From a virus, in the IMG/VR virus record IMGVR_UViG_3300032294_002877, positions 64,001 through 128,000 of that record: 64,000 nucleotides of DNA; one strand, given 5' to 3'. Shown one piece after another: positions 59,115 through 64,000 of this stretch (its first letter is position 1; each line of letters starts with the position of its first letter). The notes beneath the pieces were generated by a model. The model ran no database searches. It saw only the letters and a list, made by a program, of their open reading frames with translations, and was not told the DNA's origin. A program made the translations under genes and the position numbers.

Positions 59115-59897
59115 ATGCTAATTTTAGGAATATCAGGAAAGAAACAATCCGGTAAAACAACATCCGGTAACTTTATTTTATCTGTGTTTATGACTAATTT
59201 AAATATTAGCAAAAAAATACATATAGACAATGATGGACAAATAGTTATCTCCGATCTTTTCGGAAATGAACAGTATGCTGGGGTATTCGATCTTGCTAAG
59301 AATATCAACAGTACAGACTATCTTATACAAAAAGCAATAGATACACTAAATCCACATGTTAAACTATATAGCTTTGCAGATCCGCTCAAACAAAACATAT
59401 GTATGGATATGCTAGGATTATCATATAATCAATGTTATGGTACTGATGAAGATAAAAACACATTAACATCAATACGGTGGGAAAACATACCAGGATATAA
59501 TACATCTTCTAAATACGGATCGCATGATCCTAGCGGATTCATGACCGCGAGACAAGTAATGGAAATCGTTGGTACTAATATTTTCAGATCAATGAAAAAA
59601 GACGTATGGGTCAACGCAACACTAAATAAAATTGCCAAGGAAAAACCTAAACTAGCGATTATTACAGATTGTAGATTTCCTGACGAAATCACAGCTATAA
59701 AAAATCAAAACGGAAAAACAATAAGACTAACAAGATCAAAGTTTATTTCTGATCACGAAAGCGAATTAGTGCTAGATAAAGATAGATACGATTGGTCTAA
59801 TTTTGATTTTATTGTCGAAAACAGCGAAACAAGTATATATGATCAATGTATCGAGTTACAAAACATTTTAACACAATTATCTAAAGCGACATCATGA
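59115..59897 (+). CDS. deoxynucleoside monophosphate kinase
   Basis: GISGKKQSGKT, SFADPLK, AR..M...GT, ITDCRFPDE, H.SE. Confidence 0.85.
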   Translation: MLILGISGKKQSGKTTSGNFILSVFMTNLNISKKIHIDNDGQIVISDLFGNEQYAGVFDLAKNINSTDYLIQKAIDTLNPHVKLYSFADPLKQNICMDMLGLSYNQCYGTDEDKNTLTSIRWENIPGYNTSSKYGSHDPSGFMTARQVMEIVGTNIFRSMKKDVWVNATLNKIAKEKPKLAIITDCRFPDEITAIKNQNGKTIRLTRSKFISDHESELVLDKDRYDWSNFDFIVENSETSIYDQCIELQNILTQLSKATS

Positions 59898-60937
59898 TAG
59901 TAACATATTTTCGTAGTTCTTCGTATAATACCCATTCTATGTGTGAGCAGCAGTACTTTGCTGAATACGTCTTGGGGTGGCGAGGTCTTTCCGGACAAAA
60001 GGCCGATAAAGGCACTATTGTGCATAAAGTTTTAGAGATTTTAGCCGTGATAAAAAAGGCTCTTCAAGATAAAATTACTAATGTAGAAGATGATATTATT
60101 GGTAAAATAGACTGTAATAAATATGATTTAGATAATATTATTAAGTCTGTATATAAGTATTATTCAGAAGCGAACGCTCATCATAAGTGGTCTCAGAAAG
60201 ACTACAAAGATTGCCATGCATGGGTCTATAAGGCTATAGAATTTAATAATGGGATGTTTGATCCAAGGAATCGGAACATATTGTGCCCAGAGCAACATTT
60301 TGATATAGAGATCAAAAAACCCTGGTCTGCGTATTCTTACGACACAGATGAGGGGAAATTAGAAGGATATTTAGCCATTAAGGGCACAATAGATTTAATC
60401 ACACTATTAGATTCAAATACCATAGAAATTATTGACTGGAAAACCGGTAGAAGACTGGATTGGGCAACCGGTCAAGAAAAAACACAAGAGAAACTGGAAA
60501 ATGACCCTCAACTAAGAATATATCACTATGCTATCAGTCATCTTTATCCCGAAATAGACCATATCATATTTTCTATCTATTTTATTAATGATGGTGGTCC
60601 GTTCTCTATTTGTTTTGATAAATCTGATTTGCAAAAAACAGAAGATATGCTACGCAGAAAATTTGAGATTGTCAAAAACACTAAGCGTCCCAAACTTAAT
60701 AAAAGTTGGATGTGCAATAAATTATGTCATTTTGGTAAAACAACATTTGAAAACACTGCGATTCAGCCACAAATAGAATATAGAGATAATCAAATTTGTA
60801 AGACCGGATCTGTAATGACTAAATGCGAACAAATAAAACACGATATGGACTTGCACGGCATGGATGCTGTGGTAAACTTATACAAAAATCCTGGTCACTC
60901 GTTTGGTAAATACAAAGCACCCGGAAGCACAGAATGA
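59894..60937 (+). CDS. Cas4/RecB-like PD-(D/E)XK exonuclease
   Basis: SS......C, KGT..H, GTIDL, IIDWKTG, PQL..Y, C-terminal Cys cluster (C...C...C). Confidence 0.85.
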   Translation: MIVTYFRSSSYNTHSMCEQQYFAEYVLGWRGLSGQKADKGTIVHKVLEILAVIKKALQDKITNVEDDIIGKIDCNKYDLDNIIKSVYKYYSEANAHHKWSQKDYKDCHAWVYKAIEFNNGMFDPRNRNILCPEQHFDIEIKKPWSAYSYDTDEGKLEGYLAIKGTIDLITLLDSNTIEIIDWKTGRRLDWATGQEKTQEKLENDPQLRIYHYAISHLYPEIDHIIFSIYFINDGGPFSICFDKSDLQKTEDMLRRKFEIVKNTKRPKLNKSWMCNKLCHFGKTTFENTAIQPQIEYRDNQICKTGSVMTKCEQIKHDMDLHGMDAVVNLYKNPGHSFGKYKAPGSTE

Positions 60938-60964
60938 CCCCCTATTTAAAGGAGACAGACTGAG

Positions 60965-61009
60965 ATGGACGTGAATAAAAGGTATGTGCCTTTACACGTC
61001 CATTCCTAG
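60965..61009 (+). CDS. dnaE: dnaE N-terminal segment MDVNKRYVPLHVHS*, ending in TAG
   Basis: GGAGA RBS 9 nt upstream of ATG 60965; encodes the first half of the PHP motif (LHVHS). Continues as HYSLLDG only after skipping 11 nt. Confidence 0.85.
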   Translation: MDVNKRYVPLHVHS

Positions 61010-61017
61010 GTGAATCT

Positions 61018-62859
61018 CATTATTCACTTTTGGATGGACTTTCAAAACCCTCGCAGATAGCAGAAAGATGCGTCAATATTGGCGTAAACTCCTGCGCACT
61101 TACTGATCATGGAACCATATCGGGATGTGTTCAATTCTATCAAGAATTAAAAGCTAAAAAGATTAAGCCTATTCTTGGTTGTGAGCTATATTTATGTCAT
61201 CAAAATGCCACAATAAAGACTAAGGACAATTCATCCCTAAGTCATTTCATAGTTTTGGCTAAAAATTTTGCCGGTTGGAAAACACTGATCAAGATAGTAT
61301 CTGAAGCCAATAAACCAAATAAATTTTATCATAAGCCAAGATTAAGTATGGCTGAGTTAGCAGAATATTTAGACGGTAATATTATTGGGTTCTGTGGACA
61401 TCTAGGATCATATTTGTCCAATATAATAGAAAATAAAGACGGGTCTGAATCAAAGAAGTTGGGTATAGATTTTATCTCACAGATGAATGATATTTTTGGT
61501 AAAGGCAATTTCTTTTTAGAGTCTCAGCTAATGGACCAACAGCACAATCCTGCTCAAGTACAACTAACAGAATACATAAGAAACTTAGGTAGTGCGACAA
61601 ATACAAAAGTAATATGCACTCCCGATGCTCATTATTGTGAGAAAAGCGATGCTGTTGATCAGCGCATACTCCTATGCAACAATCTAAAGACTACTCTTGT
61701 TAATATAAATAAGAGATTATTAGATAATGAAGATGTTCCGATGTCGTGTTTTTTCAGATCGGACAACTATCATATTTTATCGCCAGAAGAGATGATAGAT
61801 ATTCATACAGAGGAAGAAATAGATAATACAAATTATCTTAACTCATTATGCGAAGAATACTCCATTCTTAGCAAACCATTACTTCCTCCCTTCTCTTGCC
61901 CAGACGGATACGATCCAGATGAGTATCTTAGGGAACTGTGTCGCAAAGGCTGGAGAGAAAAAATATCTAGTGTTATTGCTGAAAATGAGCAACAAGAATA
62001 TCTTGATAGAATCAAATACGAACTAGAAATTTTACAGGGTGCCGGGCTTAGTAGTTATTTTTTGATTGTTCAGGATATAGTCGAGTATGTTCGTCAACAA
62101 AATTGGCTTCCGGGTGTCGGTAGAGGTAGTGCTGCCGGATGTCTGGTGTCATATTTAATCGGAATTACTAATATTGATCCAATCAAGTATAACCTTCTAT
62201 TTGAAAGATTCTATAATGTTGGAAGAAATTCAGCTGATAGAATCTCAATGCCAGATATCGATGTTGACGTTCCGATCAACAAACGAGAGCTGATCATAGA
62301 ATACATAAAAAATAAATATGGTCAAGAAAAAGTATCTCAGATGATAACATATAATACTATGAAGGGTCGCGGTGCTCTAAAAGAAGTTCTACGAGTATAT
62401 GATAATATAACTTTTGAAGAGATGAATAAAATAACCAAAAATATACCTGATGAGGCTAAAATAGCGGACGAATTACAAGAGATGAAAGAAGATACTGGCG
62501 AATCCTCGATCATACGCTGGGCATTAGAAAATAATGTTGACAAACTCAAAGAGTGGTGCTATATTAATACTGATGGCACCCTGGCTGGGCCGTTGTCAAA
62601 AAGGTTTGAGCAGGCTATTCGTTTAGAGGGAACTAAATCTAATCAATCCAAACATGCGGCTGGAGTTGTGATATCTAGTCAAGAATTATCGAGTGTTTGT
62701 CCGATGGTTTATGATAGCAAAAATGATCAAGCAATAGCTGGTATGGAGATGCAAGATTTAGAAGCGATTGGTGTAATCAAGTTCGATATTTTAGGTATCG
62801 CTTTATTAGACAAAATGATGAACATATCAGACGTACTAAAAAATGGAGACTCTTTATGA
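61018..62859 (+). CDS. dnaE: DNA polymerase III alpha, N-terminal gene (PHP + palm)
   Basis: HYSLLDG, ALTDHG, KPILGCE, DAHY, YFLIV, GRGSAAGCLVSYL.GIT.IDP, MPDIDVD, HAAGVVI, KFDILG. Confidence 0.93.
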   Translation, partial: HYSLLDGLSKPSQIAERCVNIGVNSCALTDHGTISGCVQFYQELKAKKIKPILGCELYLCHQNATIKTKDNSSLSHFIVLAKNFAGWKTLIKIVSEANKPNKFYHKPRLSMAELAEYLDGNIIGFCGHLGSYLSNIIENKDGSESKKLGIDFISQMNDIFGKGNFFLESQLMDQQHNPAQVQLTEYIRNLGSATNTKVICTPDAHYCEKSDAVDQRILLCNNLKTTLVNINKRLLDNEDVPMSCFFRSDNYHILSPEEMIDIHTEEEIDNTNYLNSLCEEYSILSKPLLPPFSCPDGYDPDEYLRELCRKGWREKISSVIAENEQQEYLDRIKYELEILQGAGLSSYFLIVQDIVEYVRQQNWLPGVGRGSAAGCLVSYLIGITNIDPIKYNLLFERFYNVGRNSADRISMPDIDVDVPINKRELIIEYIKNKYGQEKVSQMITYNTMKGRGALKEVLRVYDNITFEEMNKITKNIPDEAKIADELQEMKEDTGESSIIRWALENNVDKLKEWCYINTDGTLAGPLSKRFEQAIRLEGTKSNQSKHAAGVVISSQELSSVCPMVYDSKNDQAIAGMEMQDLEAIGVIKFDILGIALLDKMMNISDVLKNGDSL

Positions 62860-63035
62860 TTAAAACATTTGCAGAATTACCGGTTGGTGCTAGATTTTCG
62901 GTAGATAATATTGAATATATAAAAACAGAAACAATCAGAGTTAGCTGCTGTCAAAGCATAAATGCTGAACAAGTAGCCAATGCGTCAGTTAAGAACTTTT
63001 TTGCAGACGATAAAGCGGTAAATATTAATGCCTAA
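62856..63035 (+). CDS. small hypothetical protein (59 aa, not in the ORF track)
   Basis: MIKTFAELPVGARFSV...VSCC..INA; overlaps both neighbours. Confidence 0.6.
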   Translation: MIKTFAELPVGARFSVDNIEYIKTETIRVSCCQSINAEQVANASVKNFFADDKAVNINA

Positions 63036-63723
63036 TTTCCAAAAAATTTGTGTCTTTGATCTGGAAACGGACGGATCGAATCCAGACAAGTGTAGTCCTG
63101 TACAAATAGCGGCTGTGATGGTTGATCCATTGTCTTTGGATATTGTTCCAAATTCAGAATTCAATATTAATCTCAAACCAGAAGCTATTGAGGACAATCC
63201 TGAATATGCATATGCAGATAGCGATGTGTTAGACTTTCATGCTAAAGTTAGGGGATCTTCTAAGCAGGAGATTTTGAACGAATGGAAAGGATATCAGAAA
63301 CAGGATCTAGGATGGAAATTATTTGTTTCGTATCTAGAGATGTATCATATCAGATCCGATAAAAAATCTTGTTTTACGGCTCCTATTGCTGGTGGATTTA
63401 ATATAAATAGGTTTGATCTAAGAATTATAGATAGGCTTAGCGTGAAATATAATAATCTAAATAAAGAAGGTAGAAGCTCCTTATTCTATCCTAGAGATGT
63501 TATAGATGTAATGAATATGTTATTTTATTGGTTTGAAGGCAATAATGAGCTCAAGAACTACACACTAGATAATCTTAGAGATTACTTAGGATTAAGCAAA
63601 GAAGGGGCTCATGACGCATTGAAGGACGTCAAAGATACGGCCCAGATACTTGTAAGGTTTCTAAAGTTACACAGAAATTTATCCAAGAAAGTAAAATTTA
63701 AGGGATCGTTTGTTAATGTCTGA
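63028..63723 (+). CDS. DEDDh 3'-5' exonuclease (DnaQ/epsilon-like)
   Basis: VFDLETDG, FN..RFD, AHDALKD. Confidence 0.88.
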   Translation: MPNFQKICVFDLETDGSNPDKCSPVQIAAVMVDPLSLDIVPNSEFNINLKPEAIEDNPEYAYADSDVLDFHAKVRGSSKQEILNEWKGYQKQDLGWKLFVSYLEMYHIRSDKKSCFTAPIAGGFNINRFDLRIIDRLSVKYNNLNKEGRSSLFYPRDVIDVMNMLFYWFEGNNELKNYTLDNLRDYLGLSKEGAHDALKDVKDTAQILVRFLKLHRNLSKKVKFKGSFVNV

Positions 63724-64000
63724 ATACTTTGTTTTTGACTGCGGATGCAAATTCCGTGTTTTGGATAACAGCGGAGAATTTCCTCTGATAGATTTTTCTC
63801 CAAAATTAGAGAATATTAATTTATCATGTTCTAGAACCTGGGATCTGATTAGTTCTGGAAATACTAAGGGTTGTTTTCAGTTAGAGTCTAGATTAGGACA
63901 AATGATGGCTAAAAAATTAAAGCCAGAGAATATAGAACAACTCTCGGCCTTAATTGCTGTGCTCAGACCAGGAACATTGGAGGCCATACGAGACGGTAAA
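63716..64000 (+). CDS. dnaE: DNA polymerase III alpha, second gene (fingers region), 3'-truncated by the window edge
   Basis: Not in the ORF track. Manual translation from ATG 63716: MSEYFVFDCGCKF...WDLISSGNTKGCFQLES.LG...KKLKPENIEQLSALIAVLRPG. Confidence 0.88.
   Translation, partial: MSEYFVFDCGCKFRVLDNSGEFPLIDFSPKLENINLSCSRTWDLISSGNTKGCFQLESRLGQMMAKKLKPENIEQLSALIAVLRPGTLEAIRDGK

Follow-up and report, generated by a model that had tools for sequence, protein, structure and literature searches.

Genes are very rarely read by ribosome hopping, and to our knowledge efficient programmed bypassing has been studied in a single bacterial or phage example, gene 60 of phage T4. The gene 60 bypass is located within a MobA HNH homing-endonuclease element (bioRxiv 10.1101/2022.08.31.505936; bioRxiv 10.1101/2024.12.09.627546). 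This cassette was still described as unique in 2022, and exit-side pairing has been proposed as the forward driver of its hop. In mitochondria of the yeast Magnusiomyces capitatus, "byp" elements of 27 to 55 nt reportedly occur by the dozen per genome and in many genes (work attributed to Lang et al. 2014 and Nosek et al. 2015). Hopping of tRNAs over stop codons in Escherichia coli reporters, said to have been followed by Weiss, Gesteland and Atkins from 1987 onward and by Herr et al. 2004, is reportedly unprogrammed and reaches about 1% or less.

Here, we describe a break in the dnaE gene of an uncultured phage, found in a 64,000-nucleotide stretch of its DNA (the window). The genome is 180 kb with a CheckV completeness of 100%, and as dnaE was the sole replicative polymerase gene detected in it, DnaE has to be made. 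The gene is broken after codon 14 by 11 nt that begin with a stop codon. From comparison with related loci, the break is best explained by a short programmed translational bypass (ribosome hop), to which we assign a rough probability of 55%. No paper describing this dnaE device was found in the literature.

The dnaE device resembles T4 gene 60 in having matched take-off and landing codons, a stop directly after the take-off codon, a stem-loop that starts at the stop codon, pairing that can form behind the ribosome, and a location in an essential gene of DNA metabolism. It differs from gene 60 in the length of the gap (9 to 12 nt rather than 50, or 20 in one clade), in the codons used (Ser UCY to UCN rather than Gly GGA), and in the position of the landing site inside the loop of the take-off hairpin. 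In dnaE, the putative hop follows a stretch of only 14 codons, and no dedicated nascent-peptide signal was seen. The 5' hairpin is strongly conserved in the dnaE device, whereas gene 60 clades show no such conservation. The device sits in dnaE rather than in a topoisomerase gene, and dnaE is not split into two large open reading frames (ORFs) at the site. No sequence homology to gene 60 is expected, and T4 gene 60/MobA would have an independent counterpart in the dnaE device. Likeness to the "byp" elements lies in the short untranslated insert within a coding sequence, the matched take-off and landing codons, the gap hairpin, the many natural variants, and the mobile-element-like spread. However, "byp" elements are read by mitochondrial ribosomes, whereas the dnaE device is confined to one position in one phage gene and is associated with an HNH cassette. 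As in the E. coli reporters, the proposed hop covers a few nucleotides and leads from a stop-adjacent codon to a cognate or near-cognate one close by. Hopping in the reporters can need no more than minimal re-pairing, and this could also cover variants of the device with ACT or GCT at the landing position. Unlike the reporters, the dnaE site has a dedicated, covarying RNA structure and lies in a gene that needs expression.

Organization of the interrupted dnaE gene

All features described here are on the plus strand. The leader ORF (positions 60965 to 61009) consists of an ATG at 60965, 14 codons in total, and a TAG, and encodes MDVNKRYVPLHVHS. It is preceded by a Shine-Dalgarno (SD) region, AAAGGAGA (60948 to 60955), with GGAG at 60951 to 60954; an AGGAG-like block 9 to 10 nt upstream of the ATG was kept in most of 43 aligned haplotypes. 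This peptide matches the strand that opens the PHP domain of DnaE and includes the HxH metal motif. The last sense codon of the leader, TCC (Ser; 61004 to 61006), is the putative take-off codon and lies directly 5' of the TAG. The 11 nt missing from the predicted protein (61007 to 61017) comprise the TAG (61007 to 61009), GTGAA (61010 to 61014), and the putative landing codon TCT (61015 to 61017), and are followed by CAT TAT TCA CTT TTG GAT GGA in the dnaE frame. This layout, with a ribosome-binding site ahead of the ATG, had been set out in an initial annotation made from the letters alone, and every letter was as described.

The N-terminal part of DnaE, comprising the PHP domain and polymerase core, is encoded at 61018 to 62859 (Pfam PHP, 2.6e−28; DNA_pol3_alpha, 3.5e−74). 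Although dnaE resumes at CAT 61018, an annotatable ORF begins only at TTG 61030. Going upstream, the dnaE frame, which is −1/+2 relative to that of the leader, is open only to 60979, and between there and TTG 61030 it holds no ATG, GTG, TTG, CTG or ATH codon. Residue 1 of the annotatable ORF falls at position 11 of the Pfam PHP profile; thus, the first 10 profile positions are absent from the ORF. Skipping 61007 to 61017, as the initial annotation had proposed, restores the PHP motif present in more than 50 uninterrupted relatives, and the canonical H-x-H ... D spacing of the domain is achieved only with these nucleotides skipped. Among GenBank phages, no DNA match to the window and no annotated close relative were found, and protein matches did not exceed 33% identity. 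The phage genome encodes 11 tRNAs, none of which reads UCN, and hence no hopping tRNA supplied by the phage is apparent. No σ70-like promoter (plus strand) and no terminator were identified near the element.

Recurrence and variation of the break in relatives

DNA pattern searches identified the same break in ~55 independent contigs representing ~40 haplotypes, and it is therefore not an assembly error. Among loci recovered by protein similarity alone, it was likewise seen in 13 of 38 and in 13 of 80. A looser, gapped DNA pattern returned mostly chance matches among the matches listed. On a 95-row DnaE tree, the distribution of the break was patchy and at odds with the tree of the host gene, with at least 15 switches between interrupted and uninterrupted states.

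The stop and gap together span 9, 10, 11, or 12 nt among relatives, so that all three frames occur and the mechanism must be independent of frame. Every haplotype, even if recovered by protein search only, has TAG or TAA immediately 3' of the Ser codon. The take-off codon was TCT or TCC in 38/38 interrupted haplotypes, compared with TCY in 32 of the 57 uninterrupted contexts, where the same position was occupied by TCT (n = 31), TCG (n = 10), AGY (n = 8), TCA (n = 7), or TCC (n = 1). In the 21 distinct tree rows without an in-frame start codon 3' of the stop (window included), the landing triplet was always TCN, and it was not a Ser codon in 17 of the 23 rows having an ATG or in-frame GTG; these 17 carry ACT, GCT, GCC, or TTT at the junction. 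TCC combined with TCA was seen only in a variant that also carries an in-frame GTG. The link between landing codon and start codon comprises one to three phylogenetically independent contrasts, all in the same direction (p 0.25 to 1), and the raw table is suggestive of a Ser landing codon kept only where a start codon is absent. For the 17 rows with non-Ser triplets, another route or a near-cognate landing would be needed, and one mechanism may thus not cover the whole family. Two candidate restart codons were considered and set aside. The GTG after the stop is not a universal restart codon, as L342/L343 lack it and the 10- and 11-nt classes have it in another frame; nor is the ATG after the gap an evolved start, since Met is native at this position in 10/57 uninterrupted genes, which cluster with the ATG-type interrupted ones.

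Several sister loci bear directly on how the two frames could be joined. L062 (11 nt) and L071 (12 nt) are sisters that differ by one base within the gap, and TCA-CAT is kept in both. In L067/L335 (10 nt), a TGA in the dnaE frame lies immediately 5' of the landing TCT, and no frameshift can therefore join the leader and dnaE frames. L342/L343 (10 nt) have TCA at the junction, and upstream of LLDG their dnaE frame contains no GTG, ATG, or TTG. A gap-less locus, L377, is sister (100*) to L062/L071 and carries the leader and HFSLLDG in one ORF. It encodes exactly the fusion predicted from the interrupted loci and has lost both hairpins. L377 aligns without indels to residues 6 to 21 of Taq Pol III alpha (2HPI), and aligned through it the leader peptide matches residues 6 to 13. 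The initial annotation had placed take-off and landing at these Ser codons, and frame-independent recoding there is favored by the 9- to 12-nt gaps, the Ser landing triplets, L067, and L377.

Leader residues 2 to 6 are variable and mirror the partner codons in hairpin 1. The remainder, Y-x-P-L-H-V/C-H-S, was kept across haplotypes with synonymous Pro, Leu, and Tyr codons; this conserved Y-x-PLHVHS is the native PHP motif and is found in uninterrupted genes too. Synonymous variation extends to Ser codons, in one case breaking a pair of hairpin 2. These patterns indicate that both flanks of the gap are under selection at the amino acid level.

RNA structures around the break

Hairpin 1 (60965 to 61003) has an outer stem pairing 60965 to 60973 with 60995 to 61003 and an inner stem pairing 60978 to 60983 with 60988 to 60993. 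The outer stem includes the leader start codon and ends, on its 3' side, at position −1 of the take-off codon. Its folding energy was −17.2 kcal/mol in the window (z, −5.6), with a mean of −17.5 kcal/mol over 38 haplotypes. The outer stem was 96.9% paired, 4 of the 9 pairs being altered on both sides, and contained 10 G-U pairs, which place the structure in the sense-strand RNA.

Hairpin 2 (61008 to 61029) is formed by arms at 61008 to 61015 and 61022 to 61029 around a loop at 61016 to 61021. The 5' arm holds the last two bases of the stop codon, the landing site is in the loop, and the 3' arm falls in the Tyr-Ser-Leu codons. In the window it comprises seven Watson-Crick pairs and one G-U (−7.2 kcal/mol alone). 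Among relatives the stem was 94% paired with compensatory changes (one pair is GC in 14 and AU in 6), and in L342/L343 it is rebuilt with other letters via synonymous Ser and Leu codons. Both hairpins had been noted in the initial annotation and are real: they covary, with G-U pairs, and are absent from uninterrupted genes, in which no such RNA structure was detected (z, +1.7 and +0.4). The arrangement is also beyond chance, as its architecture recurs with covariation in ~40 haplotypes. In the start-less rows, the Ser-stop-gap-Ser order is conserved (TCN in 21/21), and the two stems are 94 and 96.9% paired among relatives.

Two other sequence features described in the initial annotation fared less well. 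The SD-like AGGTGA is present in the gap, but relatives have TAAGTG or TAGAGAA; this element is therefore not conserved, unlike in T4 gene 60. Likewise, the duplicated GTGAAT with its potential for alternative pairing is found in the window, but its second copy covaries with nothing.

An extended form of hairpin 2 (60998 to 61039), overlooked in the initial annotation, is conserved. Its outer helix pairs 60998 to 61005 with 61032 to 61039, enclosing hairpin 2, and was 96% paired across relatives. The extended hairpin had an energy of −20.1 kcal/mol in the window (z, −6.8) and a mean of −18.6 kcal/mol across haplotypes. Excess third-position conservation (0.92 versus 0.48) stops exactly at the 3' end of the extended helix. 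As both use the sequence GUCCAU, hairpin 1 and extended hairpin 2 are mutually exclusive, and their energies were similar in almost all haplotypes.

An HNH endonuclease cassette in relatives

In five relatives (L043, L054, L064, L077, and L091), an ORF for an HNH endonuclease overlaps the start of the leader, and L241 carries a truncated copy. This ORF was unmatched by Pfam and was recognized by PHROGs and tblastn, with phrog_3322 at about 1e−22 and phrog_374 ("HNH endonuclease") at about 1e−17. It ends 10 to 14 nt inside the leader, out of frame with the new N terminus, much as in MobA, where the out-of-frame overlap is 8 to 32 nt. In these cassette-bearing relatives, the stretch matching 60948 to 60955 of the window is the 3' end of the HNH ORF. 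The association with an HNH cassette had been overlooked in the initial annotation.

No HNH homologue was found in the genome of the window, where only a 27-nt spacer follows a PD-(D/E)XK gene. We infer that this phage has lost the nuclease gene, which would add a further likeness to MobA, the retention of the gap after loss of the nuclease. Gap-less loci with cassette-type flanks were not found; the only match was an unrelated PHP gene, L389.

Alternative explanations

Four other readings of the locus were weighed. In the first, the 14-residue peptide is freed at the TAG and translation restarts downstream, at TTG 61030 in the window and at an ATG or in-frame GTG in sisters. The reinitiated DnaE, without its first PHP strand, would be functional alone or complemented by the free peptide, and the hairpins would enforce translational coupling. 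Coupling by termination-reinitiation, with ribosome sliding after termination, is described in polycistronic phage mRNAs (PMC11194080), and here too a possible restart lies within ~10 nt of the stop, in a hairpin that only the upstream ribosome opens. Many sisters have an ATG directly after the gap, in the loop of hairpin 2, or an in-frame GTG, often without a Ser landing triplet. TTG 61030 is near-invariant in interrupted loci, and T4-type phages provide examples of genes divided by HNH insertions into two functional parts. For sisters with an ATG or in-frame GTG, coupling is plausible, and they may reinitiate in place of hopping. As an account of the device itself, however, reinitiation appears unlikely. 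The window has no start codon at the point of resumption, as is the case before LLDG in 20 other distinct tree rows, and the flanks of its gap encode one continuous protein motif. TTG is replaced by CTG in L100/L004, L055, and L342, 61030 has no SD at a workable spacing, and hairpin 2 sequesters the SD-like bases. Codons 5' of 61030 (His-Tyr-Ser-Leu) evolve synonymously and are thus translated, while the post-gap ATG represents the native Met of the lineages that carry it. In addition, the strand that would be lost contributes the HxH metal ligands to the PHP barrel core, as judged from the alignment and established structures.

A −1 frameshift at U-UCC-UAG was judged improbable. The P-site tRNA-Ser would slip to UUC, and the product would gain LGES between HVHS and HYSLLDG. 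The −1 frame is indeed open across the gap in the window and the other 11-nt variants, and anticodon GGA on UUC could hold two Watson-Crick pairs and one G-U; this partial re-pairing, confined to the 11-nt class, counts against the bypass. The T preceding the Ser codon is invariant, but its pairing with the start-codon A accounts for this. An X-XXY-YYZ slippery site is absent, the slip could not serve the 9-, 10-, and 12-nt variants, which share every other feature, and it is impossible in L067. Furthermore, the would-be inserted residues change nonsynonymously, tracking their hairpin 2 partners, and extra residues at the junction are seen in neither uninterrupted relatives nor solved DnaE structures. 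The strict TCN before the resuming codon would also be left unexplained.

It seems more doubtful still that the leader ORF is regulatory, the two exclusive hairpins forming an RNA switch that tunes the amount of an N-terminally truncated, PHP-inactive DnaE, with the resemblance of the leader to the PHP domain being a leftover. Hairpin 1 sequesters the leader start codon and extended hairpin 2, of similar energy, frees it, as a switch would require, and some DnaE proteins have a PHP domain devoid of catalytic activity. A leftover would decay, whereas the leader peptide was kept at the amino acid level despite numerous synonymous changes and 15 or more gains or losses, and the gap-less sister L377 drops the hairpins yet keeps the peptide fused.

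Excision of 9 to 12 nt from the mRNA with rejoining of the ends, guided by extended hairpin 2, would explain every variant, non-Ser triplets included, in one frame-independent step and would suit the strong conserved helix that brackets the gap, but this micro-intron, raised as the alternative in the initial annotation, is the least probable reading, as we know of no bacterial or phage mechanism that removes ~10 nt from an mRNA and of no self-splicing intron nearly as small as 11 nt, Rfam gave no match at an E value of ≤1 over 60700 to 61300, the cut sites would be asymmetric (stem base and loop), and the stop directly after Ser, the TCN found only without a start codon, and the end of hairpin 1 at take-off would remain unexplained.

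A model for the proposed translational bypass in dnaE

Under the favored translational bypass, ribosomes would initiate at ATG 60965, synthesize MDVNKRYVPLHVHS, and pause with peptidyl-tRNA-Ser on UCC (61004 to 61006) and UAG in the A site. The tRNA would then release UCC, the mRNA would slide by 11 nt, and the same tRNA would re-pair with UCU (61015 to 61017), a single tRNA-Ser with anticodon GGA being able to read both codons. Decoding would restart at CAU 61018 to give a single DnaE chain with an intact PHP motif and the expected junction peptide YVPLHVHSHYSLLDGLSK. Since the take-off codon abuts the 3' arm of hairpin 1, this arm could re-zip with the start-codon arm only after an advance of ~9 to 11 nt; re-zipping behind the ribosome could thus provide the drive, with exit-side pairing acting as a ratchet. 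In hairpin 2, the stop codon would be held in the stem and the landing codon in the loop. The device could be what is left of a mobile HNH-endonuclease cassette by which the 5' end of dnaE was replaced.

The hop, its efficiency, and its driving force are inferred from the sequences of the window and its relatives, and some features count against a bypass. The nascent chain before the hop would have only 14 residues, and since the variable N-terminal half of the leader is dictated by hairpin 1, it seems to offer nothing equivalent to the nascent-peptide signal of gene 60. Termination is not weak in UAA-G and UAG-G contexts, and hop efficiency could therefore be low.

It stands at about even odds that the device represents a second, independent phage bypass family, namely a minimal 9- to 12-nt Ser-to-Ser hop after 14 codons, driven mainly by a re-zipping hairpin and carried by an HNH cassette into a polymerase gene, with sisters that appear to have moved to an ATG or GTG restart, forming a continuum from hop to split gene. 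The whole device is ~75 nt with 14 codons upstream, and ~40 natural variants sample gap length, codon identity, and stem sequence. This makes it a compact system in which forward sliding could be tested, with exit-side pairing set against a nascent-peptide signal. Gene callers will annotate such polymerases as N-terminally truncated and will overlook the PHP metal site. If the bypass is true, homing endonucleases would have recruited ribosome hopping more than once, hiding their scars in essential genes.

Interruption of dnaE and its recurrence in related phages

At the 5′ end of dnaE, a GGAG Shine-Dalgarno (SD) sequence (60951-54) precedes a leader ORF of 14 codons, MDVNKRYVPLHVHS, which starts at the ATG at 60965 and ends with the Ser codon TCC (take-off codon, 61004-06). 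A TAG stop (61007-09), GTGAA and a TCT triplet (landing codon, 61015-17) follow, all on the + strand, and CAT TAT TCA CTT TTG GAT GGA after the TCT leads into the long dnaE ORF. The initial annotation had described these elements as a candidate ribosomal bypass, and each letter matches the window sequence. Relative to the leader, dnaE lies in the −1/+2 frame, which is open upstream only to 60979 and in the window contains no possible start codon before TTG 61030. Residue 1 of the annotatable ORF corresponds to position 11 of the Pfam PHP profile; the strand bearing the HxH metal motif is therefore missing from it. The window covers positions 64001-128000 of the IMG/VR source record. The phage genome (source record 180,460 bp, complete by CheckV) carries a single dnaE, and polymerases of family A or B were not found in it, so dnaE must be expressed.

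Two genes lie upstream: 59115-59897 encodes a dNMP kinase-like P-loop protein, and 59894-60937 a PD-(D/E)XK nuclease. In uninterrupted relatives the nuclease stop overlaps the dnaE start as ATGA; in the window, a 27-nt spacer with a cassette-derived SD separates the nuclease from the leader. Within 61030-64000, dnaE is split again: the N part (PHP and polymerase core) ends at 62859 and is followed by a 59-residue ORF (62856-63035), a 231-residue RNase_T/DnaQ-like exonuclease gene (63028-63723) and a separate ORF for the finger domain, restarting at 63710. The uninterrupted locus L002 (2956-7312) has the identical four-ORF layout, making this a group-wide trait of these phages that does not depend on the 5′ gap.

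No close relative was found among GenBank phages. When the downstream ORF was used as a protein query, 13 of 38 IMG/VR loci (64 to 77% identity) shared the break, as did 13 of 80 in a second protein search that ignored the gap sequence. After DNA-pattern searches, approximately 55 contigs with approximately 40 distinct haplotypes were identified among the matches listed. When relatives were aligned at the dnaE 5′ end, they were not all uninterrupted; the break recurred, with matched structure, in approximately 40 haplotypes. The common order is an SD, a 13- to 14-codon leader ending in Y-x-P-L-H-V/C-H-S, TCT/TCC, TAA/TAG, 6 to 9 bases and (H/M/E/D)(Y/F/S)SLLDG. With 9, 10, 11 or 12 nt for the stop and gap combined, the variants sample all three frame relations. 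As structured variation recurring in independent metagenomes cannot be explained by assembly error, the break is real. At least 15 switches between the interrupted and uninterrupted states occur among the 95 rows of the DnaE tree, where genes of both kinds are intermixed.

RNA hairpins flanking the gap

Hairpin 1 (60965-61003) pairs the start-codon region with the H-V-H codons, folding at −17.2 kcal/mol (z −5.6) in the window and at a mean of −17.5 kcal/mol across 38 haplotypes. Pairing in the outer stem is 96.9%; both sides have changed in four of nine pairs, and one pair occurs as GC (23), AU (16) or GU (4). The divergent loci L111, L120 and L125 have an H-C-H motif, and their stem is therefore made of very different letters. 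Hairpin 2 (61008-61029) begins with the second stop-codon base. Its loop contains the resumption point and its 3′ arm is formed by the Y-S-L codons; pairing across haplotypes is 94%, with compensatory changes. L342/L343, from an unbiased protein search, lack GTG altogether, and their hairpin 2 is rebuilt as UAGAGAAU/AUUCUCUA via synonymous Ser and Leu codons. The two stem-loops proposed around the gap were confirmed in the window, with covariation across haplotypes. Because G-U pairs are abundant, the structure is assigned to sense-strand RNA rather than DNA.

With an outer helix (60998-61005 with 61032-39; 96% paired across haplotypes), hairpin 2 reaches −20.1 kcal/mol (z −6.8); this helix excludes hairpin 1, since GUCCAU is used by both. 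Predicted energies of the two folds are similar in almost every haplotype. Within 60965-61039 of the window, hairpin 1 sequesters the leader start codon; extended hairpin 2 frees it and buries the take-off and stop codons. Such mutually exclusive, near-equal-energy predicted folds suggest that leader translation is under a two-state switch. In interrupted loci, the excess of nucleotide conservation stops exactly at the 3′ end of the outer helix: third-position identity is 0.92, versus 0.48 in uninterrupted loci, and falls to 0.43 beyond the helix. No structure was found at the matching site of uninterrupted relatives (z +1.7, +0.4), and cassette-type flanks lacking the gap were never found among the relatives searched.

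Reading of the gap

A ribosomal hop across the gap is the favored reading, at a probability of roughly 0.55 as judged from sequence comparison. Several lines of evidence favor a frame-independent event, with resumption at the triplet directly before the H/M codon. The close sisters L062 and L071 have gaps of 11 and 12 nt, with TCA-CAT in both. L067/L335 have a 10-nt gap with a dnaE-frame TGA immediately 5′ of TCT, and the +1 path meets this TGA too, so no frameshift can join their ORFs. L342/L343 contain no dnaE-frame ATG, GTG or TTG before LLDG.

On the 95-row tree, the junction triplet is TCN in all 21 interrupted rows without an in-frame start, in keeping with the proposed Ser-stop-gap-Ser conservation, and ACT, GCT, GCC or TTT in 17 of 23 rows with ATG or an in-frame GTG. 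Phylogenetically independent contrasts are too few for this association to reach significance, and retention of the landing Ser where an in-frame start is absent is therefore graded suggestive. The take-off codon is TCT or TCC in 38/38 interrupted haplotypes; of the 57 uninterrupted contexts at the same position, 25 have TCG, TCA or AGY and one has TCC.

Termination followed by reinitiation is unlikely as a general account. It may well act in variants with ATG or an in-frame GTG, but the window has no start codon at the resumption point and in those lineages the post-gap ATG encodes the native Met. Synonymous changes in leader Pro, Leu and Tyr codons and post-gap Tyr and Ser codons, one Ser change disrupting a hairpin 2 pair, indicate that both sides are translated and that the dnaE frame is used from the junction on. 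This argues against a start at TTG 61030, the equivalent of which is CTG in L100, L055 and L342. A −1 frameshift, less probable again, is compatible with the 11-nt class but fits no other, lacks a slippery site and leaves TCN at the junction unexplained.

That the leader is purely regulatory and the polymerase truncated is improbable, being contradicted by the conserved leader amino acids and by L377, the sister (100*) of L062/L071. At 1447-1510, L377 is gap-less, with a GTG start and a single ORF, VSIERNYVPLHVHSHFSLLDG, in which a leader-type N terminus is fused directly to HFSLLDG. No indel was needed to align it to Pol III alpha of Thermus aquaticus (2HPI), and it is the natural equivalent of the predicted hop product. 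Both hairpins have decayed (−14.3 versus −29.2 kcal/mol), which shows that the hairpins serve the gap rather than general dnaE regulation. RNA excision of the gap, the least probable route, would serve all variants, but we know of no mechanism for it and there was no Rfam match.

For the hop, a tRNA with anticodon GGA reads both UCC and UCU under established wobble rules. We infer that release, slide and zipping would run as follows. Peptidyl-tRNA-Ser (GGA) would leave UCC with UAG in the A site, the mRNA would slide 11 nt, the tRNA would re-pair with UCU, and decoding would restart at CAU. During take-off the 3′ arm of hairpin 1 would lie at −9 to −1, hence inside the ribosome, and could zip with the waiting 5′ arm only after an advance of ∼9 to 11 nt, which coincides with the observed gap range. 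In T4 gene 60, exit-side pairing is currently proposed to drive unidirectional forward bypassing. Two clusters of tRNA genes, eleven in all, lie outside the window at 17645-46765 (genome G000:C1), and none falls within it; the phage's sole tRNA-Ser (anticodon ACT) reads AGY, and none of the eleven reads UCN.

Comparison with T4 gene 60 and association with HNH endonucleases

By analogy, the dnaE device appears to work like T4 gene 60, yet outside that family. It lies in a different gene, uses a different take-off/landing codon, and has a gap one fifth the length of that in gene 60, with no visible nascent-peptide signal. Its 5′ hairpin is strongly conserved, and its landing site lies inside the loop of the take-off hairpin. 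The SD-like element initially read as a signal in the gap is present in the window but not conserved across relatives, a further difference from gene 60. No published description of the dnaE gap was found in the literature searched, and a 2022 survey termed the gene 60 cassette unique (bioRxiv 10.1101/2022.08.31.505936).

In L043, L054, L064, L077 and L091, the last 10 to 14 nt of an ORF of ∼240 residues overlap the leader out of frame; a truncated copy occurs in L241. PHROGs identified the ORF as an endonuclease (∼1e−22) or HNH endonuclease (∼1e−17), and its GenBank relatives are annotated as HNH endonucleases. The leader SD sits within the last codons of this ORF and persists in nuclease-less loci, including the window, whose genome has no homologue of the ORF. 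A second, paralogous HNH ORF, 35 to 44% identical to the leader-overlapping one, lies between the dNMP kinase and PD-(D/E)XK nuclease genes in L004 (1284-1817), L009 (1111-1803) and L069 (3323-3844), and is absent from the window. In the divergent L125 (12-nt gap), the ORF overlapping the leader start (1446-2180, − strand) is a DNA methyltransferase (phrog_67, 3e−45), not HNH.

In MobA/gene 60, the HNH ORF overlaps the new N terminus by 8 to 32 nt, and bypassing is kept after nuclease loss (bioRxiv 10.1101/2022.08.31.505936; bioRxiv 10.1101/2024.12.09.627546). The HNH overlap, the nuclease-less loci and the patchy distribution on the tree match this picture, by analogy, for the dnaE device.
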